Both the position numbers and the translations under genes were made by a program. Source: Psammoneis japonica (taxonomy: Eukaryota). Taken from it: a stretch of DNA of 64,000 bases. A model generated the notes under the pieces. The model was not told the DNA's origin, ran no database searches, and saw only the letters and a list, made by a program, of their open reading frames with translations. The stretch spans positions 429,598-493,597 of the forward strand of contig QPGO01000028.1 in the NCBI GenBank assembly GCA_008632985.1, written 5' to 3'. This document shows, piece by piece, positions 1-64,000 of this stretch (position 1 is its first letter; every line of letters starts with the position of its first letter).

Positions 1-28
1 AGCTGCGGGGTGGAAGCGCAGCAGCACT

Positions 29-19240: not shown

Positions 19241-19242
19241 AT

Positions 19243-19460: not shown

Positions 19461-19470
19461 CTTCATAACT

Positions 19471-37428: not shown

Positions 37429-37867
37429 TGAATGGCAGGAAAAACGACGATGATGTCGATGTCTTGTTTTTATGAACGGATGAGCGTTACCGGCATGCTG
37501 CAGGGTTTTTACACCATGCTACTGGAGCGCATTTTAGAGCGGGAGGGAAGAGAGGAGGAGAAAAAAGGAAAGAAAAAGAAAGAAGAGAAAAGAAAAGAGA
37601 GAAAAGGAGAGAAGAGACTCTGTTTTTTCGCCTTGCAACAACATCGTTCGAAAAGCGTTGTGTTTTTGTGGATGTCGGCGTTACATTTCCAACCTCCATT
37701 TTAGAAGCTCTTTTGCTCGGGAGCTCGAGACCATTTTAGATGTTTTTAGAAGCGGCTTTGGAGCTCGAAGTTCTGCACGTGTGTGGGCCTACCAGAAAAG
37801 CGCATGTACAATTTATACTGAGCCATACGTATCAGAATTGAGTAATAAAGGCTTTCGTCACTTCCTT

Positions 37868-37923: not shown

Positions 37924-38689
37924 CCAGCACGTCTGTCATACGTCAGTTCTATTGTGAGATTGACCTTGCTTACTCGTACTAGTCGTTCAAATTTTATATA
38001 AATTTATTCGTATCTATAGAGGAAGGTTAAACTGAGCGTCGCTCCCATTTCTCTTTCAAAAAGCAAACACATCAAACAGCAAACCATCACCGTCGTCACC
38101 TTCATTGTTTGGGTGTTGCTACAAGCCAGAATGTCTCCATTACCATAGGACTGAAGCGGAGGTATGATGTATCATTGTAAAAATGATTCAACAATGACAA
38201 TGGAATTGGCACCACGATCGAATCATTGTGCAAGGCAAGATGCTGAAAAGATGGCATCTGTTGGTTAATGTTCATGACATGCCTGATTTCTGTTTCGACA
38301 ACTACTCACAGTCTAGCTCTCTGCCTTTTTGTTTCACACATTTCAGTTCAGTTGCTTCTGAGTCGCTCCTATCTCGTCCAAGGTGGAGGCTTCTCTTGGT
38401 TTCTGAAGGCCTTCGGATCTGCAGATGAGGGCCAGAACGACTTGTACCTTGTCAATCTAGGGTTGTCGTTAGCAAGTCCCTAATTTATGTGACGAAGTGT
38501 CAGCAAGTTACAACAATTGAATGCCCATCCCACGACGAGTGGAGCAGATCAAGAGGCACTTCAAGACTCACCAACTGGAGTGCAACAATGCCTCAAGTCA
38601 CACGGCACCTCAAGACACACTTTGCATCAAGCACTCGACCCACGGGTGGTCGACGTGACTAATGAATGACATTATTTTGGAATCTACTT

Positions 38690-41600: not shown

Positions 41601-44570
41601 ATCACCCGCTCACCTTCTGGTTTCTCCTTTACACGCTCTCGCAGTGCATCAACCACGGTGTTTATTTCGGCATTGCTGCACAGGACACGGACGTCTTGAA
41701 CGTTGATTCTGCAAACTGTTGCATCACTGGCAGCATCAGAAGTGGGTTCTTCGCACACCTTGTTGCACAACTCTTCAAAGTGCCGCAACGATGGAATCGT
41801 TTGGAGAAGGAACGGCTTGTCGGCACCAGGTTTGTCAGTGAAGACCATTTCTGCCGGATCCTGGCCGCACGCTTCAACTGTCTTTCAAAAGGCAAGTGTT
41901 GCATTGCGCATCTGGTCGTGACCATCCGACACAACGTGGTGCTGCATTCTAATCTCACCAAACTCATTTGTGCAGGTGACAAGGCCTTTGAAAATGGGGT
42001 TGCCGTGGCATTGACAGAGGTGCTTGGCCTCTTTGAATGATGCGTCAATGTGAAGGTGCCGTGCGCCCCTCTTCTTCACTTCCTTGTCCAAATGCCGCCG
42101 CATGGATTTGTGGTGCTCCTTGTGAATGTGAGCAAGGTGCTTCCCAGTGGGGACCAGTCCATCACACCCAGCTTTGTCGGAAAAGGTAGAGCACATGCTT
42201 CGTTGCAATGCTGGATTCAATGCCTTGTCACGCTTGCACCTGTTCTCACGTTTGATGCACTCGCGGTAGCACTTCTTGGAATGCAACTCAAGGAGCAGGC
42301 TGGAAAGGGCTTCTGGGTGCATTCCTTTGTCATGTGCTGGGCGCATGAGGTCTAGCACTGTTTCTTTGTCGACGCCGGCCCTGTGGGAAAGGTGGGCAGG
42401 AAACTCATCGCCATGTCCACAAGGCATGAGTTCAGTGGACAATGGATCACAGCCCATGAATGTGCACTGCCTCACATTGTTGCCATTGTCTTGCCTGTGT
42501 TGTTCCTTGCAGTGGTGACACATGCACTGAGCTGTCATGGCGCAGCAGCATGAATTGAGCGAGATGATGCGTCGTGCGTGGTGATTTGTTTGACACCCGT
42601 GTAGCCCAACCCGATTTTTCCGCCTGCAACAAGGACAGTGCGGAGTGCCATCTGGACCCCACCTGATGTGCGGCAACCACACAACAACCTCTCGACAGCA
42701 TGAGGGTTCTTCACAAACGATGCCAAGCTCATGACAAATCATTCTTGCATTCTCCACCAACAATTTCCAACCACTTTCTCGCAGATGCTCCAGGAGCCAA
42801 CGTCTGTTCAGAGCACCGCCGAGGTTCCCAGCAGTCTCTTGCCTCAGTCGAGCACGAACCACCCTGAGGCATCTGAGCATGGTCCCATCGGGTCCACCCA
42901 CAGCTTCATCTAGACTGTCGTCACATTCACCAAAGTCGTCTAGCTCTGCCGTCACTGGAGGCAAATCCACAGGTTTGGGAGGAGGCTCGCGACCCATTGG
43001 CCCAGAATGCGCAGCACAGAATCCACATGCGTGGGCTTGAGCTCTCGAGCAAAAGATCCAGTGACATCAACCAAGAGCCTGCTGCAGCACCCCTCACAAA
43101 GATTTTGCTTTCAACCAATGCGCTGGCATCAAAACTTCCCACCGACCTGCTGACGGCGGCAGCGCGCGCAAAAAATCCTCAAGACACCCGGATTTTTGTC
43201 TTGCTGCCACCTCAGCACTCAGCAGACTCTCTGCTAGAGTGGGCACTTCTAGCAGATGGCCACATCCCGTTTCGGGTTAGGTTGTGGTTGGTTGTTCTCA
43301 TCACAAAACGAAGACAATGTCATGTGCATGTTGGGTCATTGACAAAAAGCAGTGCCAAATGAACAAACAAGAAGGCAAAAAAAGAAAACAACACTGCCAC
43401 AGAGTTGCAGTGTCTTCTCTGTGAAAATCGTGTCATGAGCTGCAGCCAGTTTTTCAGCCTTGGTTCAGGGGTGAAAGAGGAGATGCGATGTGCTGGTGCC
43501 AATGCAGAGGTGAGAGATCTCAAAAGATGCAAATGGCTGTTGGAGTGGCAACGGGAGCTTTGGCAGTGAGTTTTTTTCTTCATGTGCAGTGGCGGCATCA
43601 CAAGAAAATGGAGCTCCTCTCATCAAGAGCTGCTGGCACCACACCTGCCTTTCTTGGGAAAAGCTTTTCACTCCAGAGCTGCACAAGAGAGCCACCCACA
43701 TCTTTTCTGCTGCACTCAATTGGAAAGCAAACAAGGTGTCCAGCTCTGCTGCCCTGCATCAGCCTGGAGGCATCTCGGTGTTGCCCCAGCCACAGCAGCA
43801 AACAGAGATGGGCATTGCACAGAGTCGCACAAGACATGCTTTGCAAACAAAAAAGCCTTGCAGCACATCGAACAAAGGGCAGTTGGCTTCAGCTGGGACA
43901 GTGTTGACAGAAATGAGAATGTCAAGTTCAGCCCAAACATCCTCACTCCTTGTGTGAAAACAAACCCAAAGAAAGCCAAAACCCATCACACAAAAAAATG
44001 CACTTTGTCTTTGACAGAAGGCCAACAAGCAAGGATGGCAACAGCCAAGTTAAGGTCAACCCTGATGATCCACTTGCCTGCAAGAAAGTTTGAGTGTCAG
44101 AGTTGAAGGCTTGACATCTGGCCACCCTCAACCAACAAGCAAAGTGGTTGAGCAGCCACTGCAGCAGAGGCAGAAGCTCAAAAAGCTGACACCCAAAATT
44201 CCCAAGCAAATTGTGGAATGACCAACAAATGCTGCAATGTTCCAACTGGATGTGGGTGCAATTCTGGCATCTTTGACAATCACTAAAATGTCAAGAGCTC
44301 CATGCCTGGACACTCCGGACAATTCACAAAAGCCTTCAGTGACCTGCATTGGCTTGAGCTCACCTGGAAGGGCATCAGCAGAGTTGGTCCTTCAGAAGAC
44401 TTCTGTTCCCAATGAATTGTCTGATGAGCTCTGGTCAAGACAACCTGCTGTGCAGCAAGCCAGTGTAGGGATGAAAGGGAAAACAATCAAAAGAACTGTG
44501 TAGACCACCTGGCAAGTGGCATGACAACATTGGCGCCTAGAAACATGAGTGCACCAATCTTTGTCCCGAC
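38690..44570 (-). mobile_element. TpA-depleted transposon block containing the exonuclease-transposase; termini not resolved
   Basis: Compositional boundaries and the internal transposase remnant. No TIR or TSD was found by eye. Confidence 0.5.
38912..43260 (-). pseudogene. Decayed DNA-transposon ORF: DUF6729-like Zn region and DDE transposase with an inserted WRN-like DEDDy 3'-5' exonuclease
   Basis: Frameshifted pieces 42997-41885, 41848-40859 and 40753-38912. Motifs CPCC..CHHC, EFPAHLSHRAGVDK, IDASFK (D1), VFTDKP (D2), LDCEW/GVAGDF/SDW..CASTDA (ExoI-III), GDGFH (DxxH) and RGTSDVESIH (E). Confidence 0.75.
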
Positions 44571-46892: not shown

Positions 46893-48023
46893 TCACTCTA
46901 ATGGGATATCTTTTTCTTCGCATTCCTCGTGATTCATTAGCATTCCATCCATAAGATCATAGCCTGTCGAAATAGCAACACCAATCCCGGTGCCTGAGCT
47001 TGCATAGTAATATCCAGCTTCGTTAACAAAAACAACATAGACTTCATCGCCGTGCGATCCATCGTAGTGCACAATTGACTTATCGAGGGCAACAAACAAA
47101 GGATCGCCTGTTTTCAAGATTTGAAAGTCACGGTCTTGGATCGATTCATGAACCATGAGGGCCGGAAAGTTGGGATTGTCTGGATCCGACGGCCAAGTGA
47201 TCTTCCCAGAGATCTCCCCTTTTCTCTTTGCTGGAGCGGTACGAAAGCAAGGAACAAATCCAGATGGATAAGCCTCTTTTAATTCTTTCATAATGGCATC
47301 CTCTTGACCCTCGTTTCGTTTCTGTAAAAACTCCAAAAGGGCGTTCAGCGCACGTTCCGTCTTGATTACTGCGTCGTGTCGTAAGACACCTTGTGGTACG
47401 GGACCAACTTCAATAGTGAATCCATGTTTGGCTGCCGAAGAAAGATTCGGTCGTTGCTGGCGTTCCGGAATGGCGTGCATGAGAATACGTGTCTCGGAAT
47501 GGTCTTTGCACTTTAGCTTGACATAAGCCGCACCCTGCGCCATGAGTTCATCGCCCTCTGGGACAATCACAGTGATCCCCATGTTGCTCGTGGTGGAGTG
47601 TAAGTCAATCGCAACATCGAACTGAGCAAGATCGGCGCCGCTGCATTTGGAACCTAACATCTCATCGAGTTCACGGGCACGAGCCCCTTCGCTCGTCGTA
47701 GCAGCTGTTTCTGCCGCATCATCGGCATGATCTATATCACACAATTTATCATAACTGAACTCGCGATTCAAATCTGTATCCACAAATCGTTTATTTTCTA
47801 AAACAGCCTTGGGATTTGCCAAGAGCGTGGATATTTCCAACGACGAGTAGTCTGCACGTAATTGTTCTTGTTGTTGGTCGAGCGACTTGATGCACCAAAC
47901 GCCCGTGTATTCATTGCCATGAGTGCCTCCAACGACAACTACTCGTTTAACAACTGGAGGCGACAATGAGATAACCTTATAGAAACAGAACAAGACGAGA
48001 ATGAGTAGAAGATAGAGCGCCAT
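46893..48023 (-). CDS. Aspartoacylase / succinylglutamate desuccinylase family (M14-like)
   Basis: GGTHGNEYTG, RFVDTDLNR, IDLHSTT, IEVGP and FVNEAGYY; N-terminal hydrophobic signal. Confidence 0.92.
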   Translation of the reverse strand: MALYLLLILVLFCFYKVISLSPPVVKRVVVVGGTHGNEYTGVWCIKSLDQQQEQLRADYSSLEISTLLANPKAVLENKRFVDTDLNREFSYDKLCDIDHADDAAETAATTSEGARARELDEMLGSKCSGADLAQFDVAIDLHSTTSNMGITVIVPEGDELMAQGAAYVKLKCKDHSETRILMHAIPERQQRPNLSSAAKHGFTIEVGPVPQGVLRHDAVIKTERALNALLEFLQKRNEGQEDAIMKELKEAYPSGFVPCFRTAPAKRKGEISGKITWPSDPDNPNFPALMVHESIQDRDFQILKTGDPLFVALDKSIVHYDGSHGDEVYVVFVNEAGYYYASSGTGIGVAISTGYDLMDGMLMNHEECEEKDIPLE

Positions 48024-48069
48024 TGTTTCTGAACTTGAAAACAGAAAATAAATCCAAAAAAAAAATGAA

Positions 48070-50205
48070 AGTTCAGAAAATCAATCAACCACAATCGCTG
48101 ACGCATGATCTCGAGTGCTTGTCTCCAGTGCAGAAGGCGACATATGTGACAATGCACGTCATGGTCATTTAACGAAAAATGGAAAGACACGTCATCGTGG
48201 CAGATGGTGCGGGGAGCGGGGACACGGTTTTTTGTCACCAACCGCGAGTTGGAGGTGCTGCTCATCAAGATCCAATCATGGTCAATGTAGAAGTTCCTGA
48301 GACCAAGAAGGACAAAGATCTCAAGAAGTGTGCTGCAGACATCAAGGCTTGCTGCTTTCTTGAGCTTTGCCACAAGGTGGCTGCAAGAGCTGATGCGGCT
48401 GCTCCCAGCCAGCTCAAGCCTGCTTCTTCTGATGCTCTCAAAGAGTCGAGCAAGACAGAGCAAGCTCGCAGCACCAACAAGATTGTTTCCTCTGCTTTCA
48501 ATGGCATTGAGGCTGTGAATTTTTCAACCAAGTTGTCACTTTGTGCTCTGCGTGTGCAGACAAGAAGGCATCATTTGCTGATGCCATTTGTTCCTTCAAG
48601 TTTGTGGACCACCCGCTTTTTGTCATGTTTGTGATGACCTGTTTGTCCAACGCATCAATGTTTTGAACTTCCTCACTCCCTGTGCAGACAATTCTGAGCA
48701 CAATCAGATCATTGTAGAGGGGCCTGAGATCTCCGAGCATTTTGCAAACATGGGTTCCAAGATGACTCTGCAGCTGAGTCGATCAAAAACGGTCTGCCTT
48801 GTGCACTCATGGCCGTGCCTGGGATTTTTCAGATGCCATCACTGCTCTGAGCAATTTTGGGCTTGCATTTGATGCCTTTGTGGAGAATTTCAATGAGAGT
48901 GCTGCTGTTTGGCAGCTGCTTCTCCACTGCTGCAAAATGTGGCTTTCATTGAGGTTGGCAAGACTTGGATCACAGGTGATGGCAGCTCTCATGAGATTGC
49001 CATGAACATTCTGAATGATGCTCAAACTGCCATCAGCACATTTTTCCAGCTTGGAAGCTTCCCTTGCTGTCATGAGGTGATTCACAACTCCCAACAAGGT
49101 TCAGGCTGTTGCTTGATTTCACTGTGAACACTGAAAATGGACCAACTGCTGGCTTGCTGGCAACCCTCCTGTTGAGAGTCCACTCACCAAGGAAGTTGGG
49201 AGATGCAAAGATCAAAGCCTGCACTGAAGAGACAGAGCCACCAGATGGACTCAACTTTGACCCAGTGGCAGCTGCTGCTGGTGGTCAGTGCCCCACCTCT
49301 CTTTCTGCAGTTCAAGAAGGCCAAGAAGACGTGGAAGACAAATGAAGGAAATGGAGGAATTGCAAGCAATTTCTGAACCATGTGCTTCACAAAAAGAGGA
49401 AAACACATGAAACCAAAATGAGAAGCAAGAATGTGGAGAGCCACATGGGAAAATGTGCACAGTCACAAACACCCTGAAAACCCATGTCATCATTTGTCAC
49501 TCACTTTTGGGAAGGTGCAAAAACAATCACATGATTGCAGGTGCAAGAAATTCAGTGCAGTCTGCAGAAAAAGAGGAGGTCTGTGTGGTGCCAAAGAAAA
49601 ACATTTCCCACAGCACAGGCCCATCTCTGGCTGCTGCACTTGCCATGGCTTCTGATTTCTTTTGTCTCAAACAGCAAACCTGGTTGCCAAACCCCCCTCT
49701 CCTGCATGAGCTCTGGACCTGGTGCACCGACATTGTTGCTGGATCAAAGTCTGCCTGGAAGGAAGCTTGGGGAGGATTGGCAGCAATCATGTCCATTGGC
49801 AAATTGCCAATGTGGAAAGGCCAAGCATCCGATGTGGAGCATCATCTGCCAGAGCACAAAAAAGAAGCCCCCGCACAACATGCAACAACTGAGGCACCCA
49901 AAGTGCATCGTGTCACCATCAGCACAAGTGAGATGAGCCACCCCAGTTGTCGACCACTCAGTGGATGGTGATTGCAGACTTTTTCATGTCTGTTGTGCAG
50001 TCTGTCATGCAGCCCATCATCATGCAGTCCATCGGCCACACTGTTTGAATTCGTGTCCCTCGGATTTTGGAATGGCATGGGTTGTTTAGACCAAATGAAT
50101 TGTTCAAGTTTGAAAAATGATCATTGAGGGTGTGTTGGAGTTTACAGTGTGGACTTTCAAAAAAAAAGAACCAAGTTCCCTCTGTGTTGGAGCTTGCAAT
50201 GTGGA
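48070..50205. other. Decayed TpA-depleted repeat, host of the copia insertion; continues at 57540
   Basis: Abrupt loss of TA directly upstream of the aspartoacylase start; Cys/His-rich pseudo-ORFs. Confidence 0.55.
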
Positions 50206-50210
50206 CTTTC

Positions 50211-50379
50211 TTATGGACCAGCGGCATTGGGACAATGCAACGGATGTCTGGGACAGATGACAATCGTGCACTGGATGAGAAAGAAAGTGAGCAAAGGAGA
50301 GATCATCGGATCTCTCCGTGCTGTCTGTGCTGGTCTGTCCGACACAAGGGAGTGTGCTCCCCGTCTCGGATGTCTGTCA
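50211..50379 (-). repeat. 3' LTR (169 bp)
   Basis: Ungapped alignment to 57366-57534 with 22 mismatches. Preceded on the minus strand by the PPT at 50380-50388. Confidence 0.95.
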
Positions 50380-50521
50380 CCCTCCCCTGATGAGCAATGC
50401 AATGCTCAACAAGAAAGAAAGAGACAATCCGAATAAAAAGAGAGGGCCAGAATGGCAAAGAACAAAACAAATAAAACAGAGGCACACCCAAGACTCAATC
50501 CACAACAAAACCCGACAACAA

Positions 50522-53500
50522 TCAACGGCAGTGTCCCATCAAGCGGCGGGCATGGCGGGAATGGAGTGTCCAACCCACGGCCTTGGTCAGTGCATCAGCA
50601 GGGTCAATGACACCCGGGATGTGTCGAGTGACAATCTTGCCTGCGTCATGCCAGTCTTGGACAGCAAAATGTTGAACATCAATGTGGTGGGATCGCTCCG
50701 CAGGCACCTTGTCATTGACCATCTGGATGGCAGAGGAGTTGTCAAGGTGCAAGGGAGCTGGATCACGTTGGGGAAAACCCAATTCTTCCAGAGCCATGCG
50801 GAGGTGCAGGGTTTGTTTTGCACCAGTGACAGCTGCGAGGAACTCAGCTTCCATGGAACCAGTGGTGGCAATCGTTTGCGTGCGGCATCGACAGTCAATC
50901 GCAGCACCAGCAAGGACATGGGCATGTGCCGCATCAATGAATCCAAGAAGTTGGAAAAGGTCAACAGCACGAGGAAAATCCGGGAGAGATGGGTCATCCT
51001 CAAGCCATTCAAAATCGCGAGGAGGGAGGCCGGGATCGCGTTCAGACTTCTTGCAGGTCAGTCCCCAATGTTTGGTGCGCCGCAAACACTTGGCCACGCG
51101 CTTGAGTGAACTGCAATGGAGCTCAGCCGGTGCCTTGGAAAACTTGGACAAGGTGACAACAGGACAGCCAATGTCCAAATGACAACAGGAGCAGGCAAAG
51201 ACCAACCCACCCAAGACAGAACAGCGCAAGAATCCTTGGGACTCAGCAAGAGCATCATGCTTGGGTGCGCCCTCTTCAGGACCTTCGGCAGCACACAGAT
51301 CAGGAATGCAATCAACCGGAACAGGTGTGGCCTTGAAATCAGAATCAGACTCATGCGCAGTGGGAGCATCCCAACCATGGGTCTTGAAAACACGGTCAAG
51401 GTGGCTGGCAACGTTGACAGTGATTGAGTCGTCATTTTGAATGACATCAACACTGTTGAATTCAGCAACCAATCCCAAATGCTTGAAGGGAGGAGTGTCC
51501 TCATTCTCCATCTGGAGAGCCCTGCCAACATGGTCGTAGATCTCTTTCGCAATCTTTTCAGATGGACAAGCAAGAGCAAAATCATCAACCTGGCGAAGGA
51601 GGAGGACCTTGACACCATCATGTTCACCGGAATGGATGCACTTGTCATGAGTGGCATCACGGAAAAGAAGTTTCGCACCCGTGAGAATCGAGTTGACATG
51701 CTTCTCCCAGAGGACACCAGCTTCAGGATGGCCTTGAAGAGCATGCTTGAGCGGGAGAGACGCGTTCCAGCCCTAGGTGGGAGCTCGTAGCACTGACGTG
51801 TGACAACAATAATTTTTATCATCCGTCGTATGTTTCGTACGTAGATTTCTACGTGTGTTATTTAAAAAAAATTGTCCAGACTCGCTGTTTTGCGAAGCCC
51901 CAGACGTTTTATATAACAAATTTATAGAAACAATAATGCGCCAGTTACATTCTTCAATGTCTGAAGAATGTAGCTGTCTAAGTAACAAATGATGTACTTC
52001 AATCATGTGCGAGTTTGTGCGTTCGCAAAATTGCCTCATTTTCTGTTGGCGATCATTGACATTTTAATTACCGTATAATTTTACTACGGAGCTCGCACGT
52101 AGAAGTCTGCGGGCCCAATGTCACACGGATTCCCACCTACGTCTGGAACGCGTCGAGAACACAATGGCGGGGCACTTTCTTGCCAAATCTCTTTTCACAC
52201 CAGGCAGCATGTGCATCATCAACAGCAACAAAAACCGGTTGTGATGGGCCAGGAGAATGAGCGCAGGCATCCCGAGCATCGCCTCCGAAGACACAATGCG
52301 ACACAGCCGCACTGAGAGCGAAAAACATCTTTTCGACAGAATGTTCCACACACGACGAACAGGTGGAAGTCAACTTGTGCAAGGCTGGCATTGCGACTTG
52401 GAACCATCGCCACATTGTCGAGAGCGACGTTGTCCATCCGGCTTTGCCATGTGATCCCAATGCGGACGCATGATGTTCGCGCCAGGGGGACATGGTTGCG
52501 GAGGACCACACATGCCCAGGGCATCAAATTGGTCCAGTTGACGCTGTTCGCCTTCTTCCCATTCAGGCCATGTGTCAAGTTTACGAAGTTTGGCGCGGGT
52601 GAGACGGTCAAGAGCAGCTTCCTCCGGAGTGAGTGAGCGAGAGCCAATCGCACTGAGATGTGCACAAAATGCATCCGCAGGAATGGCCTCATCCGAAAAA
52701 TCATCATTGGGACAGAGAAGAGCCACAACAGATCGCACATCTTCCAAAGCAAGTTTGGGAACATGAGAGTCGTCCTCCATGGTGTCAGGTTCAAATGACC
52801 CCGCTTCCTCAAATGCCTTGTCAAGGGTGCGACGTCGTTCCGGCGCAAAAGCAATCTCGAAAGTCGAAATTTTATCATGGAAGACCTGAGACAAGGCCTC
52901 TTCAGCATCCAAAGGAGTAAAGACCTCATGCTTGTTGACAGAGACAATGCATGCACCCACAATCTTGTTGCGAGCAGCACGGAGGGAAGAAAACAATGAA
53001 GCCGCAGGACTGCGCTGCTTGATTTCCGACACATGGACACGGTCCATCAGCGCACACTGAGAAAATCCAAAACCACAAGTGGGGTCCTTTGGAGGACGTT
53101 TCATGGCACATGCAACAGTCGCAGCAAACGGATTTGACGAAGATGTGAACACAGGAACGGTGGTGTCCTGTGTTTCAGCTGGAAAAGGCTGACCATTTTC
53201 CACACACTGTAAATGGACAGCATTGGGAGGGAGTTGATCCAAAAATGGGTCATTCACACCCTCATCGCAGTGCACATGCTTGGCTGTCTTGACTTTGTCG
53301 GTCTCAGGATCCCACCACATGACATTCTTGAGGGTGTTGGGAAGGTGACCAAGGAAGACACCCTTCTTGGAATTGGTCTGGAAGGTGGCAGAACGAGCAG
53401 TGGACCGTTTGGACCATGCTCGACATCCGAAAGTCTTCAGAGCAGTAAAATCTTTGACCTTTCCGGCAGCAAGAGTGATGGGTGCCGCATCTTGAGCTTT

Positions 53501-54800
53501 TGCAGGAGCAGCATTCTTGATGCGGAGGCAGTGGTAAAATGCATGGGGCCAGAATCGGATCGGAAGGTTGGCACCAATTAAAATCACACGAATCGCGTTT
53601 TCAACAGTCAAGTGTGAGCGTTCAATGGGCCCACATTGGTTGGATGCACCAGCGCCAGAAGGACAGATGTTGCACTGGAATTCTTGTTCAAAGAGGTCAC
53701 GAACTTTGGGGTTTTTGCACAATTCCCCACCTTGGTCCATGAACGCATGTTCATCACGACAATTTGGTGAATGTCGATCCGAGAATCGGCGAAGCCACTT
53801 GAGAGGACTGGCCTTTGAAACCCTCGCCACTCCATGGAGCATCCGCGTGTGATGATCATAGACAGCAATCCAACATGTTTCACCATTGCATCCAAGACAA
53901 TCAACCTTGCGAGCCTCATTCTTGGAAGTCTGGCCAGCAAAAGCAAAGTCTACAGTGAGACCTTGGTGTGGTTGGGTCGCCTTCCGAGTCGTGTTCGGTC
54001 CAGCAGGAGTCTTGACTTGCTTGGCTTGGATGCACACAGGGCAACTTGGGGACGCCCTCAATGTGCTTGTGAGCATTGTACAAGCAGTGATCACTGGGGT
54101 GTCCAAGGCATTGATGCCATGGAAGACGTTCAGTCTCAACCTTGAGAGAGCGGACAGGAGCAGGGGCAGACAACGGAGCTGAGTCACACTGCATCGAAAA
54201 CAGCTCAGCATCCATCAGCAAGGGATCAGATGGACCTTGTTGGACGTTGACAAAAAAGACTGCACGTCGACATGCATCATCAACATCATCAACCAAGGAC
54301 ATGTCAGGGGTCGTCGATGTCGAAGGGACACTGGACGGAGACGGAGGAACCAGGGGTTGTGTGAACACCTTGCCATGTCGAAGAATGCCATGGACAACTG
54401 CCGCTTGTGCATCAGCAGAGGCAGTGCAAGTGCAAGTGCCGTCGGCACATGTCTTCTCAAGGAGCTCGGAGCAAATGGACTGAGATTTGAAACCAGAAGC
54501 CCGCGCAAAATCACGCTCATCAATCAAAGTGGAACGCAGACTGGGATGGTAAAAAGCACATACGAGAAGAAAGCCTTCAGGATTTGTTGCAGGCACCTGC
54601 AGGTGACCAAAGCCATGGGGAACCGCATCAGAGCCTTAAGGAGTGTGGGCGTGGAGGAGGTTCTTGTCCCCTGTGCAGGACACCCAAGCACCAGTGTGAA
54701 TCTGTGCACGACACATCGTTGAATCACGAAGTGCATGATTGATGGGAACGACTGGGGTTGCCAAGGATGCAAAGGTCACAGGTGACTCCGGGGGAGAAAA
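50522..54800 (-). pseudogene. Copia pol (protease, integrase, RT, RNase H), frameshifted and interrupted by a MITE
   Basis: WHQCLGHP..CPVC (HHCC), MDQGGE, GPIER, FWPHAF, LKTFGC, HALQGHPEAG and RNase H EAEF..LDNSSAI..HIDVQHF..ADALTK. Confidence 0.9.
51759..52154. mobile_element. 396-bp non-autonomous TIR element (MITE), 24-bp TIRs, 4-bp TSD GAGA
   Basis: Left end GACGCGTTCCAGCCCTAGGTGGGA against right-end reverse complement GACGCGTTCCAGACGTAGGTGGGA (2 mismatches). GAGA at 51755-58 and 52155-58. Excision restores RT HCVLPLKHALQGHPEAG. Confidence 0.92.
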
Positions 54801-55084
54801 AATCGGGGAGATGCGCGCGGCACTGAGAGGCAACAAATGCTGGGTGCCAGTCATGTCAAGATGCTCAAATGCTTGGTCTTGGTCAGTGGACAATGGAGCA
54901 TCAGCATCCAATGCAGGAGGATCCAATTCCCTCCCCTGATTGTGATTGCCAGGGTCATCATCAGGAATCATCTTGGGATCAGGAGCACCAGCCTTCGTCG
55001 AGCTCGAAAGAAGGGCAGCAAATGAGACAGGTGAAAGAGGAGGATCAGCGGAAGGCAACGAGTCGTTTGGACCCTCTTTCACAG

Positions 55085-57163
55085 TTACCCCGCTTGCAGG
55101 AGTTTTTGGATTGGAGGAGGATGGGCGGCATTGTTTGTCCGAACGCAACAATGGCCCTGGGAAAAATCCTTCTTGGCCGTGCCAGACTCAAGTGCATCAT
55201 GAGCATGCTGGTCACGTTGAAGGAACTGGGAGAACCGAGCAAGATGGGTGCACAGGTGCTCAGCATTGTTCAACACAGGACACTCATGGAACAAGTGGTT
55301 GTTGCCACAAACAACACATGGACGGTTCTGTGCAATGGCAGGCAAGGACTTGATCCTGTGGATGCAGGCCTTGTAGACACCATGGAGGGCTTGTGCATCA
55401 TCATCTGTGGGAACATCCACAGCAGCAAGTTCATTCACAAAACACTCCACAGTTTCCGCAGGTTCTTCCGCAGGAGGAGAGTCAGGTTCCTTGGGAGGCT
55501 CTTCAATCGCTGGAGGCGGAGTAGAAACTTCATCTTGGGGAAGCAAGTCAAGACCGTGGACAGGAGCTGCGAGAGGAGGAGGAGGCGAAGTGTGAAGACG
55601 ACGTGGAGGACATTTGGGAGGTTCCTTGACACGCAGAGCTGGACCATCCGGTTCCTTGAGAATCGCACTGACAGTTTCAACAATCTTCTTCTGGGTGAAC
55701 TTGTGTTGTTTGGTCTTGTCTTCCCCGGCGTCCGCTGTTTTACGGTGAAGGTGCTCGCCATGGCGGGTGTTGCTGAGAAAGACATCAAGCTCACCAGGGT
55801 CATCAAGAGGTGCATCAACATTGGAGATGATGGCGCGTAGCTGGAGGTAGTCTCTGAATAGAGCACAACAGCCAAGGACCGTAAGATTGTTTTGGTGCGG
55901 GCAGCTCTTGATCAACTCGTGCGGACGCTTTGTCCAAATCGGCAGGACATCAAAGAGAATCATCTTGACAGCCGCATGTCCATCACCATGACATTGGCGA
56001 ACGATGTCAGGGCACTTGGAGTCTGCCGGAAAAATTCCAACTTTCTGAATGCACTGGAAGACAGTCAGTTTCATTCGGTCAAGTGCTGCTGTCATCCGGA
56101 GAGGCAGATCATCAGTGGGATCATTGCCACAGGTGAAACCCCAATTTCCACCATCCTTGATAAAACACCACAGAGGGTGCATGTGCACACCACAAGCCAA
56201 GGCTTGTTGGGTTGCAGCACGAATTCCTTGAGGAGAGACATCATCACAAGTGAGAGGATCGCGAAGGAAAGACTTTGCATCCCAGTCAGTGCGATGAACA
56301 AAGAGTGAACCATCAGCAAGGATCAGACGCTCAGCACCATCCTCGTGACAAAGGTTTCCAGACTTGCAGGGCACCAGAGATTTTCCGAGTGCGACTTTCC
56401 CGGCTTCCTTGCACTGACAGCGGGCCAGTGCATCCTTTGGAAGTCCTTTCGGATTAAAGGCATGTAAAGCACTGGCAGTCGTCGAGGAAGAAGGCGTGCC
56501 AGTGGCAGTCACAATGGAGGGTGCAGGAGACGATGCCTTGGGAGCAGAGTTCTTCAATGCGGTTGTCACAGCTTGCTCAAATTGTTTTGGACCAGGTGGA
56601 TGAGCAGCCAAGGCCCCAGCAAAATCTTCAGGAGTTGGACCTGCAGCAGTGGTCGATTGAGATGTAGATCCTGGAGGAGACGCTGACGGTGGGTGTGGAG
56701 CATCAGAGATGTCATCCCAACACAAATGATTCTCGAAATTGGGGCAAAAGAAGAGACTGACAGTCCCAACATACATGGTTGTGGCATCTTGAGCGTCTGA
56801 GATGGCTTTGATCATGGCTTTCTGAAGATTGGTGAGGTTCAGACGGTTTGGGGCATCTTGAGGAGCTGCCACGAAGAGGGGAGCTTTGTCAATGAGCGGT
56901 CCAATCCGTTTGAGATCCTTGGTCAAGGTGGCCTGAGGTGTGATTAAATCATGAACGATCTTGTGATGGATGGTTGCAATTGCGTCGGGCTTGAGGCCTG
57001 GAGGAGCAAATCCATCCAGAAGATCTTCAGGAGCAGGTGTGGCATCTGAATGAAGGTCATTCAGGTGAGAATGGGCATCAGGTGAGCAATTCTGCTGTTT
57101 GAATTCGACCTGTGTTGACTTGATCTTGGTCAAATCGACGGAAGTTTGCTTGGTCGGCGCCAT
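55085..57163 (-). pseudogene. Copia gag
   Basis: 692-aa frame with a C-terminal knuckle CVVCGNNHLFHECP, located after the PBS. Confidence 0.8.
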
Positions 57164-57355
57164 GGTTGCGCGGGAAAAAAATCAAAATCCCACGTAGAAC
57201 ACTGGCATGTGGTCTACAGTGGTTGTTTGATCACAGACAGAGAGGTGAAAAAACAGCTGTGACAATGATGATGATTTCAACGAAGAAAAGGTCGCCAAAT
57301 CACACAACAGGCGTTGCAATGGATGAGCACAGAGGAAGAGGAACAGCGCACTGCT

Positions 57356-57365
57356 GCTCATGACC
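57356..57365 (-). other. Primer-binding site GGTCATGAGC (copia-type half-tRNAiMet GGTTATGRGC with one T->C change)
   Basis: Directly adjacent to the 5' LTR. The plus strand GCTCATGACC matches the tRNAiMet anticodon arm GCTCATAACC with TA->TG. Confidence 0.7.
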
Positions 57366-57534
57366 TCACGGACTGGCGGTGTCGGGACAATCTAACGGAT
57401 GTCCAGGACAGATGACAATCGTGTGCTAGATGAGAAAGAAAGTGAGCAAAGGAGAGATCATCAGATCTCTCCATGCTGTCCATGCCAGTCTGTCCGACAC
57501 AAGGGAGTGCACTCCCCGTCTCGGATGTCTGTCA
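57366..57534 (-). repeat. 5' LTR (169 bp)
   Basis: Ungapped alignment to 50211-50379. Followed on the minus strand by the PBS. Confidence 0.95.
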
Positions 57535-58359
57535 CTTTCAAAAAACAAATTCTCTCTGTGGCAGGTGCACAGAGCTGTTTTTCAGCGGAGCTTGAAATTC
57601 ATGCAAGATTGGAGTTGCCGGCATGGTGTGTTGGGAGAAACATTCAGTTTTTGCTGGTTTTTGACAACACGTGGAATGTCTGTGGGGTCAAGAAATTGTG
57701 CCAGACATTGGCCGGGATGTGTGTCGTGTGGTTGTGTTGGCAAACAAGAAGAAAAAGAGTGTTTGTGTCATTCTTTGGTGGCACTGCAGTCATTGTGAAT
57801 CATCAAATGTGATGGCAGATGTTGACTCGTGAGTGGGATGAAAAGTTGGGCTGCTTGGTTTTGTCAAGTGCACATCCACGAGATTTGTCTGATGTCGCCA
57901 ACAAGTGTGTTTTTGCACTCACCCATGCCTGAATGTTTTCAGTGGGTGTGGTGATTGTGCAAGGTTGAAAGACTTTGCAATCATGCCCAAACTTGACATG
58001 AACTGTCTGGCATGACGGCAATCATTCGCGGCACCATCTGGAACAACTGTCATCACATCAAAGCACCATCTGGCCATCCACCGGAACAACAAACATGCAC
58101 GCACACACCACACATTCAATGGCACACACCCACACGCCCGCAGCACCAAGACACAGCAGAAGGACAAGTGGCCAATGCTCCCCCCCCCCCCCCCCGCAGG
58201 ACTTTTTTTTTGTGTGTGGCCAATGCTGGCATGCAGGCCTGTTCCTTTGGCTCGCTGCCGGCCACTGAGTCCACGTGCAAGTGTTCGGGAGTTTTCCGAC
58301 TGTCAGTCTTGTTTTCCAGATGGACTTTGGACAGGCTTTGTGTTGTTGTTTAACCAATT

Positions 58360-58700
58360 TAGCAGCAAATGTGTGTGGGCTGCAGTCGGCACGAGACTGG
58401 TTCTTTGTGAAGAATTCATGCACCAATGGTTCAAGAGAAAAGACACGCAGCTTGTCGAAGACTGGGTGCAAAAAAGTGATGGTCATGCCGCAGAAGGAAT
58501 CAAGGAACTCAATCGCAAAAAAATGTGCTGGGTGCCTGCCACATCTAATTTTGCCAACATCGATGCCGCCTTTGCTTGTCAGAATGTCTTGGTGTGCATT
58601 CAGCACACAGTCAGACAGCAGCATGGTTTTGACAAGGATGCTTTTTGGCAGGATTTCACTGACAGAGTTCACACGGTTGTCGTTTCACCTGCGGGCACTG
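58360..58700 (+). pseudogene. Crinkler/RHS-type PD-(D/E)xK nuclease-like remnant
   Basis: LCEEFMHQWF...CWVPATSNFANIDAAF..NVLVCIQHTVRQQH resembles the YWxP...NFPxIDA....xxQxTVxxxH pattern after Y->C/H reversion. Confidence 0.5.
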
Positions 58701-61700
58701 GCTTTCAAAACACCCATGCAGGCTGCAGTCAACCTTGTGCTTCTGTCACTGGCAAAACTCTGTGAAGCCAGGGCTCAACTCCTCTTGTTCCCATTTCATT
58801 TCAAACTGTGGAAGTTGCTTGCACTGGCGCGGACATGACAAACATGACGGTGATGAAGATGGCCTTTCTCAATGAAGAAATCCATGCAGATGCACAAGAG
58901 GGATGGTCATTGCGAAAATTCCACCCCATGACTTGAGCAGCATTGACATGTCATGAGGGAAAGTGGACACTGCCACTGCTGCTGCTGTGCTGCCCACCAT
59001 TGTCATCTCTCTCTCTCTGTGATGCACTGTGGATTGTTGATGCTCACAGCACTGACAATCACAGTGTCATGTCACACCATTGTTGTTGCATGACCTTCCA
59101 CTTCAAGAGTCTTCCACAAACAGACAGTTGGTTGGTGCCAGCATCAGAAGGACCAGCCATTGCAAGTTGCAACATTGATTGAGAGGCGCACAGCCACACA
59201 CACACGTCTCCTTCCACCTTCTCGCAGCGACATTGGCATCATTGTCATTCACACAAACACCAACAACAGCAGCCAACATCATCCATGTTGCTGATGAAAA
59301 AGAAATTCAAGGACACGATGAAAGCAATGCAACAGTTGAGCCTGGAATGCGTTCTTTGGTGCCACGGCAGCCAGACAAAAAAAGCCAAAGCAACAGCAGG
59401 CGTCGTCTTCAACGACAATGACAACAACACAGCAGCGCGTGCTGCAGATGTCACCATCCAATGAACCACAACAAACAGGAGAAGGGGGCAAACAACAATG
59501 ACGTGAGCAAACCAAGGAACCAGCAGTCACACATTTTGGCATCGGTCAGACAATGGCCAGTTGCTTGGAGCCAGTTTGTCAATGGTTGAAAGACCTTTCC
59601 AGTGTGGCAAAGGTTGTGTTTTTACCTCAGCAGTTTCTGCACATGATCATCATTGAAGGCACACATCCCACTGGCTAAACGACTTGGACAGTGAAGGAAG
59701 TGAAGGAGAACATGAGTGAAAAGTTGGCACAATGCTTGTGCGATGCATTGCAACAAGACACATGTCTGGCTAATTTGCCATTCATTGAGCCCAACCAAGG
59801 TGTGATCGAGGTCCATCTCTGAGCTTTGCCTTGAGGAGGAAAGCAATGCAAATCACATCCCTTGCACCCAATGTCTTGAAGGTTAGAATGTGGCTGGAAG
59901 AGAACATCCATCATGCCATCTTGAAAGAAGAACAAGCAGATGAGAGCTCAAGCAATGACAATTCAAGCCCAAAAGAAAGGGAGGGGATCATGCCACATGG
60001 GTCCCAGCCAACCCACATTTGCTTCAACATTTGACTGGCAAACCCTTCTGGGCTGAAGCATGACACCTCACTGTTGAAATGTGTTGTGTGCCATTGGGGT
60101 GCGATGTTGAGAGATGTGCCAACAAGTGGGGAGAAATGTTGGGAGACAATGTTGCTGCCAATGCAGAGAGGGGCTGAAGCAAGTCCAAGAAAAGAAGCCT
60201 GCCAATGCAAATCTGATGGCTTTGATGCACACCAGGAGCATGGGGTCACTGTGTTGGGAAAATCAGCAGGGAAGCAGGAGCCAACCTCAAAGCAGATGAG
60301 AGCATGGTGCAGGAGATGCAGCAACTGAAAATTTGAGAATGGGCTTCTCAGTGCAAAAATTTTGACATGTTGAGAGAAGCACCAGCTTGACGAGTTTGAG
60401 AGGTGCGCAGAGCCAAGTGTTAAAACAAGCAAAAATTGTGCACAACTTGGGTTCCACCATTCATGGTGGCTTGTTGCAGCAAAACTTGATCTTTTTTGAA
60501 AACAATGGCCCACATCATCACATTGATTTTGGCACACCAGCCACAAGCAGTCAGAGTGATGATGACTCTGACACATGCTTGCTGCTGTCAAAATGCTTGA
60601 GCCAACAAAAAGATGCAAAAGGCTCACAATGAAAAAACTGCAAAAGGTTTGTGGTTTTTTTGCTCTGTGTGTGAAAAGACAACAACAAAGTTCTTTGACA
60701 CCCCTCTTCAGGCACTTGCAGCCTGAAAAAAAGATCTCCAACAAACAACATGACAAGCCCCCTTGTGCTGCACTTTCCACAGGCTCAGCTTGCAAAAAAC
60801 AATCTCATGAAAGCAGGTGAGATCACAAATGGTGTGGCTTGCCACACACCACCACCAACAACAACAACAGCTCCTTGTCGCTGGCCTCTCTCAAAATGAT
60901 GCCAGACCACAAACAACAAATTGCCAGGAGCCAGCAGCAAGAAGCAAGAGCACTGCTGGATTCAACCACCATGGACTTGCACTCACAAGAAAAATGACAG
61001 CAGCACTGCTCATCGTGGCAAAATGTGGAATTGTGAGTTGATTGGCTGTGGCCTGCTGTTTGAGTGAGACAACAACAGGCTAGCTCAAACCACAAAATTG
61101 CCAAACATCAATCAGAGATGATGCCCACAGCAGGGCTGATGATGTGCTGTCGTTTCAGGTGAGAAATGTTGGCACAAATCATTTAGATTTCTGCTTGTTT
61201 TTGCACAATGCATCTGTGTGTGAGACAAAAATGAGCTCTGCAAAGACATGTGTTTTCATGTCTCAAACCACAAACAACTCTTGGCAAAAATGTGGCACCA
61301 TGCCACCAACACAAACTCACCTGCTCTTGCACCAGCAGCTGTCACAACAAAGAATTGAGAATGTGGGGACACACCAATGAGACCATGCTCTGCATGATCA
61401 TGATGCAGTTGAAATTTTGATTTTTTGCCACTTGCCTTGTTTTGCATCTTGTGGATGGACTTTCAACTCATGGCCATTTTTGCACCTCTTTTTCTCTTCA
61501 TCAGATTGTGAGTCAGCACCCTTTGCAACACTTCACTCTGTTAACTTTTTGACACCTGCTGCCCACACAAACAAAACTCATTTTTGCAATGCATTGGTGT
61601 GCTTTTTGTGATGCATCAAAATGCACCTTGAGTCACTGTGGGTGACAATGATGAGTGAGCATGATCAACAAATCAAATTTAGGCACCTGAAAAAAGGCAT

Positions 61701-63372
61701 GGTTTGAGGGTTTGTGGCAATTGACAAGCCCACAAACAACTCTGACAGGTGTGGCATTGTAGAGCACAGAACAATGACACCAGCAGTCATTTTTGTTTGT
61801 TGCCACTTTGCTCCTTTGTTGAAAGTTGGAAGTTTGTCATGTGAGAGAATGGAAATCTTGTTTGTGCTTGCCATTGTTGCTGCCTCTGCTGTGCAAATCA
61901 CTCAATTTCTCAACAGTCACAAAACCTTGACACAACTCTTTCAGTGCCATCCTGCACAACTCACCCAAGTCTCCCATTGTGAAGGTCAACAAACCAGCAG
62001 CCAATCTTTGAGGCAGCCCACCATGCACAAAACAAGTGTGTGCAGAGCCAGCTTCCCCCAACTCTTCTTGCAAAAAAAAAACAGAGTTGGAATGCCACTT
62101 TTTTCACACAAACTCTTTTGTGCTGCAAGAGTGTTGGCACTGGTTTGAACTTTTGAACAGTCAGGTGCAGCGGAAGAACAGAAAAACATCACAGTGCAGA
62201 CCATCATTTTCTTGCAAATCACCTCCAAAAAAACATGGGAAAGTCCACCAAGATTTGTTTGCACAAGCTGCAGAGTGACAGAAAAAAGGTGGACACAACA
62301 AGCCACACCTTCACACCCACATTTCTCACCTGGCAGGGTGAAAACAACACACCGACTGCCCGGCTGAGCAGGCCAGCTCTCATCACCCTCGTTGAAAGTT
62401 GAGTCTTCAGCCTCCTCTTTTCAACGCATCAAATTTTTGGCAGGCTGCTAAAGTGCACATGGATTTTTTGAGCCCCCCAAGTGAAAAACACTGTTGTTTG
62501 CACAAGCAGGCTGACAGAGAGATTTTTCATCTGGCTGCAGGGAGCAAGCATGGTGGGCTGGCAGCACGCCACCTCCTCCTCAGTTGGCAGCACGTTGTGT
62601 CTTCCTTTTGTGACTTTGTTGGCACATGCAAGACACTGTGGTGCATGTGCCAACAAACCAGACAGCTGCAAACTGCTGGAGATGGCGTCACATTTTTGCA
62701 GCAGCTTGGAAGCTCTCTCCAAATGGACATGCATGCAGCGGCGCCAAAAAATGGTCGGTCACATGTCCGTCTGTGTCTGCCTCCTGCCCTGACCCCAAAT
62801 GGACCGGAGACAGATGGGTGGGACGAAGTTGGGGTTTGGGGCTGACCACTTTCAGAATGACCAAATTTGCAAGTGGTCTTTGCACATGAAATGGAATGAA
62901 ATGACTTTTGCATGGTTCGGGGTTTCACAAAAATTGCCATGTTCACTCATGTGAAACATTCGCAATTTTGCATTGCCTTGGTCATTTTTGGGTTGGGATG
63001 CCATTGACTCCTGGCCAATCAATTGGCTGTTTTTCTGTTTTGAGGTCATTTGCATTGAATGTTTGAGTGCCATTTACTTTTGTCTCTTTTTTGTGCCCTT
63101 GATCTGCTGTGTGGACATGATGTGTCACTTTTTCCGTTGAGATGATGGATTTTTGGATTTTGTGCTTTTTGCGCACGCTCGCTTTCAAACCGGAGATCGT
63201 GAGCACAAACAACTTGCTCAACCGCCTTGTTTCTGTGCCTGACAAGGACAATCACATGATGCAAGCCCAGATTGTTGCTGCATTGTTAAAAATCATTGTC
63301 CAGTGATTGCAGTCTTTGGCTGTGATGCCTTGCATGGTCATGTTTGCAGCTGGAGCCTGACAGCCTTCTTCT

Positions 63373-63630
63373 TTATGAGCCCTCCTCTTGTGTGCTCCTG
63401 AAGCAACCAAGGAGCTCCCTCAATGCCAATGATGTGTCCTTTGTTTTCCTGCCATCAAGCTTCTTCCCAAGATGAAGCCCCTTTCTTGTTGTCACTCTGG
63501 ACAGAGCCACATGAGCCCAGTTGTTTCTGCATTCAAAGTTGTTGACAACCAGGCTCTCTGAGGCAAAGTGGCCTCCATGTTGAACAAAAAGAAGCCTCTC
63601 TTTGCATTCGAATGACTGGCACTTTAGCAA
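63373..63630 (-). pseudogene. PIF1-like (Helitron-type) helicase C-terminal remnant
   Basis: SLVVNNF..NNWAHVALSRVTTRKGLHL corresponds to the helicase motif VI region YVALSRV with Y->H. Confidence 0.65.
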
Positions 63631-64000
63631 ACAACATTGTTCAGCTTGTGGTTGTGGACAGGGAGAACAAGGTCCAATTCTCTGGGCACCTGAACAAGGA
63701 CATGGGGAACAGACATTGCTGGCAGATCAAAAGGTTCTAGACTTTCAGATGTTGCCATGAGAGTCAGTCACAAAAATGACAAAGATCCAGAGGAGAATGG
63801 CTGGCCTGTCAGGACTTGTCTGATCACAAAAAATGAAAACACCACCAAATCACGTCTTCAGTTTTGTCAATCAAGAATTGGGCGACAACGCACAAAGACA
63901 ACAAGCACAAGACAGAGCATGTTGCCGATGATGTGATGCATTGTGCTGTGTTGTGCACCATCCACCTGCTACACCCAACCATTTGTGGGCTGCCAGCACC

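Follow-up and report, generated by a model that had tools for sequence, protein, structure and literature searches.

The window analyzed here, a 64,000-nucleotide stretch of contig QPGO01000028.1 (Psammoneis japonica), carries on its minus strand a degenerate and dead Ty1/copia retrotransposon, with broken reading frames that have lost nearly all of their tyrosine and two long terminal repeats (LTRs) that have diverged in an unusual, context-bound manner. The element is bounded by the only direct-repeat family that a repeat search found between 49.5 and 58.5 kb (50210-50380 and 57365-57535, 87% identity), and its two LTRs of 169 bp each span 50211-50379 (the 3' LTR, adjoining a polypurine tract) and 57366-57534 (the 5' LTR). 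The same 5-mer, CTTTC, lies directly outside both of them (50206-50210 on the left and 57535-57539 on the right), so the two direct terminal repeats and short target-site duplication expected of a copia element are both present. This identity of the flanking 5-mers further favors a single insertion over a recombinant of two copies. The polypurine tract, read directly from the sequence as AGGGGAGGG on the minus strand, occupies 50380-50388; no primer-binding site was recognized next to the 5' LTR by reading the sequence, for which no tRNA comparison was made.

Between the LTRs, three open frames remain on the minus strand. The frame at 52370-54214 covers the integrase region with a match to SH3_retrovirus (the integrase C-terminal region) that passes at 41 bits (E = 1.8e-10), and it is followed downstream by a remnant of the reverse transcriptase at 50522-51772, in which RVT_2 stays below threshold (20.1 bits, E = 5.3e-4; cut-off 31.6 bits). 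The upstream frame at 55085-57181, on the gag/protease side, had no family match in the domain search. Tyrosine makes up 0.3%, 0.2%, and 0.4% of these frames, respectively, versus 3.0% in the homologues of the integrase frame. These homologues number 30 (39-57% identity; the named ones are from Nitzschia inconspicua and Cylindrotheca fusiformis), and one of them (P0140) carries PF07727. The best homologue of the copia element is 51% identical, and the element falls outside any family represented among the sequences compared. Its LTR pair, 5-bp duplication, polypurine tract, and apparent order of integrase upstream of reverse transcriptase resemble those of diatom Ty1/copia elements (the family studied in PMC2806351), but unlike intact elements of this type the copy in the window is dead, nearly free of tyrosine, and has only a sub-threshold RVT_2 match. 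Its host is judged to be a pennate diatom from the affinity of the host AstE/AspA-family gene at 46893-48080 (minus strand), whose best named match is from Cylindrotheca closterium with 65% identity. We also observed that the insertion site of the copia element is a short tandem repeat with a unit of ca. 52 bp (50131-50210 and 57535-57570): the sequence to the right of the element resembles the repeat unit starting ca. 55 bp to its left, and with all purines written as one letter and all pyrimidines as another, 50131-50158 is identical to 50183-50210.

An ungapped alignment of the two LTRs gives 22 mismatches, 21 of which are transitions. They comprise seven doublets in which CA in one LTR faces TG in the other (14 nt), three sites with TA opposite CA or TG, four with CG opposite TG or CA, and a single G/C transversion that adjoins one of the TA/CA sites. 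The first-pass annotation of this stretch had arrived at the same total, class counts, and number of transitions by hand, and our computational alignment reproduces them exactly. All 22 mismatches fall within pyrimidine-purine (YpR) steps, which comprise 82 of the 169 positions (hypergeometric p = 2e-8), and not one of the 87 remaining positions differs (95% upper bound 3.4%). The earlier view of this LTR pair as a record of the mutation spectrum holds, and that spectrum is very unusual and context-bound. Doublets are also more common than expected from independent hits among the YpR positions (7 versus 2.9; P = 0.002, estimated from 20,000 random placements). In the alignment, the 40 YpR steps consist of 8 CA/CA, 12 TG/TG, and 7 CA/TG pairs, 6 CG/CG, 2 CG/CA, and 2 CG/TG pairs as well as 2 TA/CA and 1 TA/TG pairs, while TA/TA is absent, and CA as well as TG outcomes are present in each LTR.

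We fitted these classes with a simple model in which the two LTRs lose ancestral palindromic steps independently of each other, by hits that affect either strand with the same probability. Under this model, the probability of loss per LTR is ca. 0.25 for CG and ca. 0.90 for TA, and the seven doublets are apportioned as ca. 6.7 from TA and ca. 0.3 from CG, i.e., most of them were probably TA at the time of insertion. The fitted TA loss agrees with the body of the element, where only 2 of 15 conserved tyrosine codons are kept and the observed/expected ratio (o/e) of TA is 0.04-0.10. It corresponds to ca. 2.3 hits per TA step and LTR, compared to 0/87 differences outside YpR steps and one transversion in 169 positions, although this ratio is an indirect one. 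The Kimura two-parameter distance between the LTRs is 0.15, and with so little change outside YpR steps the age of the element must be much lower than a standard LTR date would suggest, as the earlier annotation had argued.

To determine the direction of change, distant homologues were aligned to the DNA by tblastn, and each conserved residue was linked to the present codon by a single change where possible. For the copia element (30 homologues, at least 8 aligned and at least 60% in agreement), 298 of 401 conserved codons are retained, and the remainder include 14 TA>TG and 9 TA>CA changes against a single CA>TA, 7 losses and 2 gains of CG, 12 other transitions, 29 transversions, and 29 multi-step changes. 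The excess of losses over gains in these codons (23 to 1 for TA and 7 to 2 for CG) supports the earlier proposal that each LTR doublet derives from a TA or CG step that mutated on different strands in the two copies. Two unrelated elements in the window gave the same picture. One is a 1566-aa frame at 14381-19081 (plus strand) with 7 homologues, which retains 273 of 463 conserved codons and has 10 TA>TG, 6 TA>CA, and no CA>TA changes alongside 12 CG losses, 1 CG gain, 17 other transitions, 69 transversions, and 75 multi-step changes. This frame has no Pfam match of its own, though 3 of its 7 homologues carry DDE_Tnp_4 (PF13359), and it stays open despite the loss of most tyrosine codons. The other is a DUF6729/exonuclease element (38800-43300, minus strand; 150 homologues) with 328 of 407 conserved codons retained, 15 TA>TG, 6 TA>CA, and no CA>TA changes, 8 CG losses and no gain, 9 other transitions, 23 transversions, and 18 multi-step changes.

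Pooled over the three elements, there are 60 losses of TA (39 TA>TG and 21 TA>CA) versus one gain and 27 losses of CG versus three gains. This polarity contradicts the scenario that the first-pass annotation had named as speaking against its own reading, i.e., that the doublet sites were all ancestral CpG and the TA/CA and TA/TG sites all gains of TA. The consequences are clearest for tyrosine: among 54 conserved tyrosine codons, only 9 are kept, while 21 now encode cysteine, 14 histidine, and 10 other residues. Since cysteine and histidine result from hits on either strand, their ratio of 21:14 (p = 0.31) means that both strands are hit about equally, and as read from these alignments the change is thus a loss of TA on both strands. 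A host gene analyzed as a control in the same way (120 homologues, 207 conserved codons) has kept tyrosine at 8 of 8 positions, with two TA>TG and one TG>TA change. Across the window, long frames in the affected DNA encode 0-0.8% tyrosine, 3.1-8.1% cysteine, and 2.3-8.1% histidine, whereas five of six host-gene frames have 2.5-3.5% tyrosine (the sixth, PHM7, has 1.3%).

The signature extends well beyond the copia element. For the whole window, TA o/e is 0.27 and CG o/e 0.63 with CA and TG at ca. 1.5, but this average conceals two very different kinds of DNA: ca. 41 kb of depleted, transposon-rich sequence (TA 0.10, CG 0.50, CA 1.67, TG 1.61) and 23 kb of genic sequence (TA 0.54, CG 0.89, CA 1.20, TG 1.23), between which the other 12 dinucleotides agree within 0.10. 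TpA depletion and CpA/TpG enrichment are clustered in four contiguous domains, namely 1-19000 with the 1566-aa frame (TA o/e per kb of 0.03-0.24), 32800-34300, 38600-44500 with the DUF6729/exonuclease element (0.05-0.22 at 39-44 kb), and 48100-64000 with the copia element (0.00-0.34 at 48-64 kb). Elsewhere, TA o/e per kb is 0.31-0.79, or 0.42-0.79 in kilobases that lie wholly within host-gene regions. The state changes within ca. 100 bp at the domain borders, e.g., at the sharp border near 48.1 kb. Loss of TA runs ahead of loss of CG, with TA o/e of 0.12-0.24 at 14-19 kb and 39-42 kb where CG is still at 0.61-0.90. Two results thus go beyond the earlier annotation: the process is confined to domains of mobile DNA and spares host genes, and the loss of TA rather than the decay of CpG is its faster component. 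Changes of TA to TG or CA cannot give rise to a stop codon but do eliminate TAA and TAG, which are down to 2.4 and 1.7 per kb in depleted domains versus 9.6 and 8.4 in genic DNA, and this explains the many long open frames in all six reading frames of these domains. An old direct repeat on the plus strand (10531-10909 and 11123-11524) illustrates the end state of the process: of its 88 mismatches, 63 are transitions, there are 20 CA/TG doublets, and TA steps as well as shared CG steps have disappeared.

Within the copia element itself, a nested miniature inverted-repeat transposable element (MITE) of 396 bp has escaped this fate. It occupies 51759-52154, is flanked by GAGA on both sides (51755-51758 and 52155-52158), and has terminal inverted repeats of 24 nt that are 92% complementary. 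Its TA o/e of 0.87 and CG o/e of 1.47 contrast with 0.04-0.10 and 0.54-0.60 in the copia sequence on either side. Contigs of a public sequencing run, X1, contain 63% of the sampled 31-mers of 49000-58500, and three of them join 51754 directly to 52155 across the MITE. Depth in this run is ca. 100,000 over the MITE versus ca. 2,000 over the copia sequence, itself a very abundant family with 5,166 aligned contigs in which variable places show 1,494 transitions versus 412 transversions. The presence of an unmutated MITE in TA-free copia DNA implies that the process is now inactive in that domain or that it spares this insert.

Similar heterogeneity appeared among relatives of the copia element from environmental DNA. 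Two homologues from the protein search (P0139 and P0148) contain no tyrosine at all, and a search of metagenome contigs with the former recovered 80 loci. They represent a related copia family with multiple copies that, judged by its relatives alone, would be of diatom type. The TA o/e of these copies ranges from 0.01 in one contig (L001) over values of 0.15-0.35 to ca. 0.6 for most. L001, in which the loss of TA without that of CpG was most extreme, has a TA o/e of 0.01 along its full length of 5,501 bp and a CG o/e of 0.50-0.94. For a closer comparison, we aligned the integrase region of 34 full-length copies, of which 26 remained after removal of 8 near-duplicates and 22 core copies after removal of 4 distant ones, and used the column majority of these core copies with its 47 TA steps as reference. 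L001 has kept none of 44 scorable TA steps (18 are now CA and 26 TG), while L002 has kept 9 and lost 33, L010 15 and 29, L040 22 and 23, and L051 20 and 20; the majority of core copies keep 34-44. The process may thus have acted unevenly, both in the metagenomic family, where copies keep anywhere from 0 to 44 TA steps, and in the window, where an unmutated MITE sits in a depleted element. CG loss amounts to 6-21 steps per copy and shows no correlation with the loss of TA (Spearman 0.18, p = 0.43), i.e., TpA loss is statistically independent of CpG decay. Copies with similar numbers of other transitions can differ seven-fold in TA loss, as seen for L001 (44 losses, 55 other transitions) and L005 (6 losses, 58 others).

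The polarization of LTR differences with family members that the first-pass annotation had proposed was carried out in this sister family. In contig L011, both LTRs are present and differ at 13 positions of a 201-bp BLAST match, and a comparison with nine outgroup LTRs identified 8 single TA losses, 1 CG loss, 1 CG gain, 1 TA gain, and 1 transversion. Of two doublets in this pair, one has TA in the outgroups, as expected for an ancestral TA, while outgroups of the other have TG, CG, or CA, which makes a former CpG its most plausible origin. Both doublet origins are therefore present, with TA loss dominant. Signs that hits come in strand-coherent tracts are too weak to build on (runs-test z below -2 in 2 of 10 copies; Fisher p = 0.048 for the LTRs of L011).

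The susceptibility of TA depends on its 3' neighbor. In the metagenomic family, the rate at which the A of TA is hit is 0.26 before T, 0.20 before C, 0.115 before G, and 0.09 before A (p = 2.5e-6), and TA steps that survive in the depleted DNA of the window relative to genic TA mirror this order with 1.79 before A, 1.32 before G, 0.79 before C, and 0.32 before T (p = 2e-24). The preferred target is hence 5'-TAY, with a pyrimidine in 3' position, and the common order of T>C>G>A points to one mechanism behind both data sets.

We consider it quite likely that the 13% divergence between the LTRs arose almost wholly from two context-bound processes that act on integrated DNA and are confined to domains of mobile DNA. 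In this scenario, a Ty1/copia element, now dead, would have inserted once into transposon-rich DNA of a pennate diatom, where a fast process turned TpA into TpG or CpA, i.e., A into G on one strand or the other with a preference for 5'-TAY, so that ca. 90% of TpA is gone from both LTRs and from the internal part of the element. A slower decay of CpG to TpG or CpA would have claimed roughly a quarter to a third of CpG steps, for which the deamination of 5-methylcytosine in transposons that carry methylation is the best explanation. Each CA/TG doublet would then be the same palindromic step hit on opposite strands in the two LTRs. The polarity, the action on both strands, the restriction to mobile DNA in the window, the preference for certain 3' neighbors, and the recurrence in environmental copia elements are all shown by the data, and the process acts after integration given that the LTRs differ though the target-site duplication is intact. 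As for the agent, we infer that it is enzymatic, with a DNA adenine deaminase as leading candidate by analogy with what has been proposed for the chlorarachniophyte Bigelowiella natans (10.64898/2026.01.13.699255), though a thymine-directed route gives the same outcome in sequence. The graded copies and the untouched MITE suggest that the process acts in bursts or on chosen copies and not uniformly.

Several observations weigh against this interpretation. The ancestry of the 22 LTR sites is derived indirectly from the coding region and class counts, and the polarization of codons takes the present neighbor bases as ancestral, accepts the first solution with a single transition, and draws on distant homologues. 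If all doublets had been TA, the LTR would have held 16-17 TA steps at insertion compared to ca. 10.6 in a hand estimate (o/e of 1, equal bases), and this excess suggests that one or two doublets may be former CpG or that rates vary between sites. A degenerate 34-nt LTR pattern had no match in metagenome contigs and found only the two LTRs in the window. For the abundant family in run X1, the analysis covered 40 listed places out of 1,906 that vary, two of which are in an LTR. Among these 40 places, where the copy in the window differs from nearly all contigs, only 2 are TA>TG, whereas CA in the family corresponds to CG in the copy at 7 (50318, 51287, 52834, 53300, 53781, and 55919 as well as 50363, which is CG in both LTRs). 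This excess probably stems from the choice of listed sites, at which the family is uniform, and the CA-versus-CG places may also go back to a subfamily, younger and more abundant, that has lost these CpG steps, or to gains in the copy of the window. At 50318 in the left LTR, which is CG, nearly all of the family depth has A, so this CG may be a gain from CA and not a survivor; however, the majority in X1 gives no clear polarity, since it may itself be derived if a younger subfamily has become more abundant. Among the metagenomic copies, the loss of TA increases with the number of other transitions (Spearman 0.61, p = 0.003), from which it follows that part of the spread between copies is age. 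Finally, the confinement to mobile DNA is drawn from one 64-kb window and short environmental contigs, and any enzyme, modification, or mutation rate in living cells would be a deduction from fixed differences.

The most conventional alternative is that methylation-driven decay of CpG accounts for everything, in which case every doublet would be former CpG and the TA at TA/CA and TA/TG sites would have arisen by C>T. Diatom transposons are indeed CpG-methylated and are depleted of this methylation in Phaeodactylum without DNMT5a (PMC9998398), the same domains are depleted in CG (0.50 versus 0.89), and one doublet of L011 was most plausibly CG. We nonetheless view this explanation as very improbable because TA losses outnumber gains by 60 to 1, 35 of 54 conserved tyrosine codons now encode histidine or cysteine, and the depletion of TA exceeds and precedes that of CG, as seen at 14-19 kb and 39-42 kb; moreover, six CpG steps intact in both LTRs and four single hits predict only ca. 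0.3 CpG doublets. A different concern is that the LTRs could in truth be identical, with modified TA and CG miscalled as CA or TG in a long-read assembly. Base-calling errors do occur at modified bases, and if they affected either strand they would mimic symmetric transitions at palindromic steps; at many of the listed places, no X1 contig has the letter of the window. Yet X1 shares 63% of sampled 31-mers, and one of its contigs matches 57505-57800, a stretch with no TA at all, without any substitution (the run being presumed independent of the assembly). An artefact would also have to spare the MITE with its TA o/e of 0.87 inside TA-free copia DNA and to recur, with TA o/e down to 0.01, in contigs from several separate metagenome assemblies, which leaves it hardly credible.

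Two further alternatives concern the timing and the purpose of the mutations. The LTRs might never have been identical if the element was edited before integration, either by ADAR-like conversion of A to I in the transcript or by deamination of the cDNA. ADAR enzymes prefer a 3' G, and the 3' order of T>C>G>A observed here is opposite to that. Editing would furthermore have to hit both strands about equally (21 cysteine and 14 histidine codons, p = 0.31), to affect the DDE_Tnp_4-like and DUF6729 elements, which resemble DNA transposons without an RNA step, to the same degree, and to deplete whole domains of several elements including the DNA around copia, while young copies such as the MITE and most metagenomic ones have normal TA. 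So even though editing of LTR retrotransposons of the APOBEC type is documented in vertebrates (PMC4866542) and ADAR-type enzymes favor a 5' U (10.64898/2026.01.13.699255, discussion), we give this route very little credence. More serious, if still unlikely in our view, is the possibility that the same process is no dedicated defense but a mutagenic side effect of a base modification on silenced chromatin, in which oxidized or otherwise modified thymine or modified adenine at TpA would give T>C or A>G at replication. In sequence, A>G on one strand and T>C on the other look alike, a domain-wide depletion with sharp borders fits a mark bound to chromatin, and a steady by-product would lead to TA loss rising with other transitions as observed (Spearman 0.61). 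Against it stand the unlike TA loss of copies with similar divergence (44 with 55 other transitions in L001, 6 with 58 in L005), the untouched MITE in a depleted copia element, and the finding that only 11 of 15 B. natans lines were mutated (10.64898/2026.01.13.699255); these points suggest switching or targeting, though none is decisive. Hydroxymethyluracil of the dinoflagellate type was also considered as a cause and dropped due to the diatom affinity of the host gene.

A loss of TpA by hypermutation of mobile DNA has one close precedent. A preprint on B. natans (Mettrop et al., bioRxiv 10.64898/2026.01.13.699255) reports a hypermutation specific to TpA in viral DNA that is integrated into the genome: an integrated giant virus and a virophage together received 231 of 302 new nuclear mutations, 230 of these 231 were A>G or T>C with the GC-biased ones all at TpA, and the rate was ca. 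6e-7 versus 3.5e-10 elsewhere, with mutations in 11 of 15 lines. Clusters poor in TpA and rich in CpA and TpG exist elsewhere in that genome. The parallels to the diatom are extensive, i.e., A>G or T>C at TpA that gives TpG or CpA depending on the strand, an effect on foreign DNA while the rest of the genome (in the diatom, of this window) is normal, and clustered TpA depletion with CpA and TpG enrichment as long-term signature. Genes poor in TpA in B. natans are enriched for reverse transcriptase and DDE domains, and the targets in the diatom are transposons; activity seems uneven in both cases, among lines of B. natans and in the graded copies and untouched MITE of the diatom data. The two systems differ in the host, a diatom (Stramenopila) versus a rhizarian, in the targets, a retrotransposon and two elements resembling DNA transposons versus a giant virus and a virophage, and in the degree of depletion, which is near saturation in the diatom (TA o/e of 0.00-0.34 over ca. 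40 kb versus 0.45 in the viral region of B. natans). The rate in B. natans was measured directly in mutation-accumulation lines, whereas the diatom process is deduced from fixed differences; the order of 3' neighbors and the parallel decay of CpG were observed in the diatom data, and the main text of the preprint does not contain the words "diatom", "stramenopile", "CpG", "context", or "trinucleotide". Our literature searches also found no report of a TpA-erasing signature in diatoms. The results support the view that the TpA-erasing, transposon-confined hypermutation in diatoms is a new case of a kind described once before, in the B. natans preprint.

Other known systems share only some of these features. 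The decay of methylated CpG in diatom transposons is visible in the same domains (27 losses versus 3 gains; o/e of 0.50 versus 0.89), but it accounts only for the minor, slower component and is independent of TA loss in the metagenomic family. Fungal repeat-induced point mutation (RIP) changes C to T mainly at CpA and thus creates TpA. It likewise produces transitions in a dinucleotide context on both strands of mobile or repeated DNA, with sharp borders and dead copies as a result, but the polarity is opposite since the depleted domains of the diatom have a TA o/e of 0.10 and a single CA>TA change versus 60 TA losses. Unlike the editing of retroelements by ADAR or APOBEC, the process hits both strands, has diverged the LTRs after insertion, and affects elements that look like DNA transposons. 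CpG methylation in a diatom has been described for the Blackbeard transposon (PMC2806351), and diatom DNMT4 enzymes, whose function is unknown, may be related to RID (PMC9998398).

We further infer that the process serves as a RIP-like defense. In its full form, diatoms would have a dedicated, switchable defense of inverse polarity to RIP, with an enzyme, most simply a DNA adenine deaminase, that reads 5'-TAY, is directed to silenced mobile DNA, and erases TpA on both strands, and because the same signature is found in a rhizarian and in diatoms such a system would be old within SAR (stramenopiles, alveolates, and Rhizaria) and widespread in marine algae. We put this forward tentatively, as a reading with somewhat less than an even chance of being right. 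Erasing TpA would destroy every tyrosine codon and many codons for isoleucine, leucine, and valine without ever creating a stop.

Should the pattern hold genome-wide, diatoms, which rank among the major primary producers and are well equipped with genetic tools, possess a transposon-directed mutator of A:T>G:C polarity, a process of which no case had been described before that of an unrelated alga in the 2026 preprint. Ages obtained from the LTRs of diatom retrotransposons would then be too high by a factor of ten or more. Dead elements that keep long frames also mean that gene finders call phantom proteins without tyrosine and that domain searches miss these elements. Conversely, TA-free domains offer a simple marker, readable from sequence alone, of DNA that the cell treats as foreign, and the preference for 5'-TAY together with the contrast between hit and untouched copies provides handles for finding the enzyme and the targeting signal.

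The remaining features of the window concern the other depleted domains. The minus strand at 38912-43066 encodes DUF6729 and a 3'-5' exonuclease in a single reading frame that is interrupted between the two by one stop (41885-41887); together they probably form one large transposon-type gene. The small domain at 32800-34300 lies between host genes and is depleted in both TA and CG (0.06 and 0.07, respectively, at 33001-34000). Starting 33 bp after the stop of the 1566-aa frame, a 483-aa frame at 19114-20565 (plus strand) has 3.1% tyrosine and normal TA, and the border of the depleted domain falls between these two frames. Recoding of the window into purines and pyrimidines uncovered no further long repeat beyond the LTR pair and two known duplications, and the purine/pyrimidine self-comparison showed a short tandem array with a period of 6 bp at 37536-37617.

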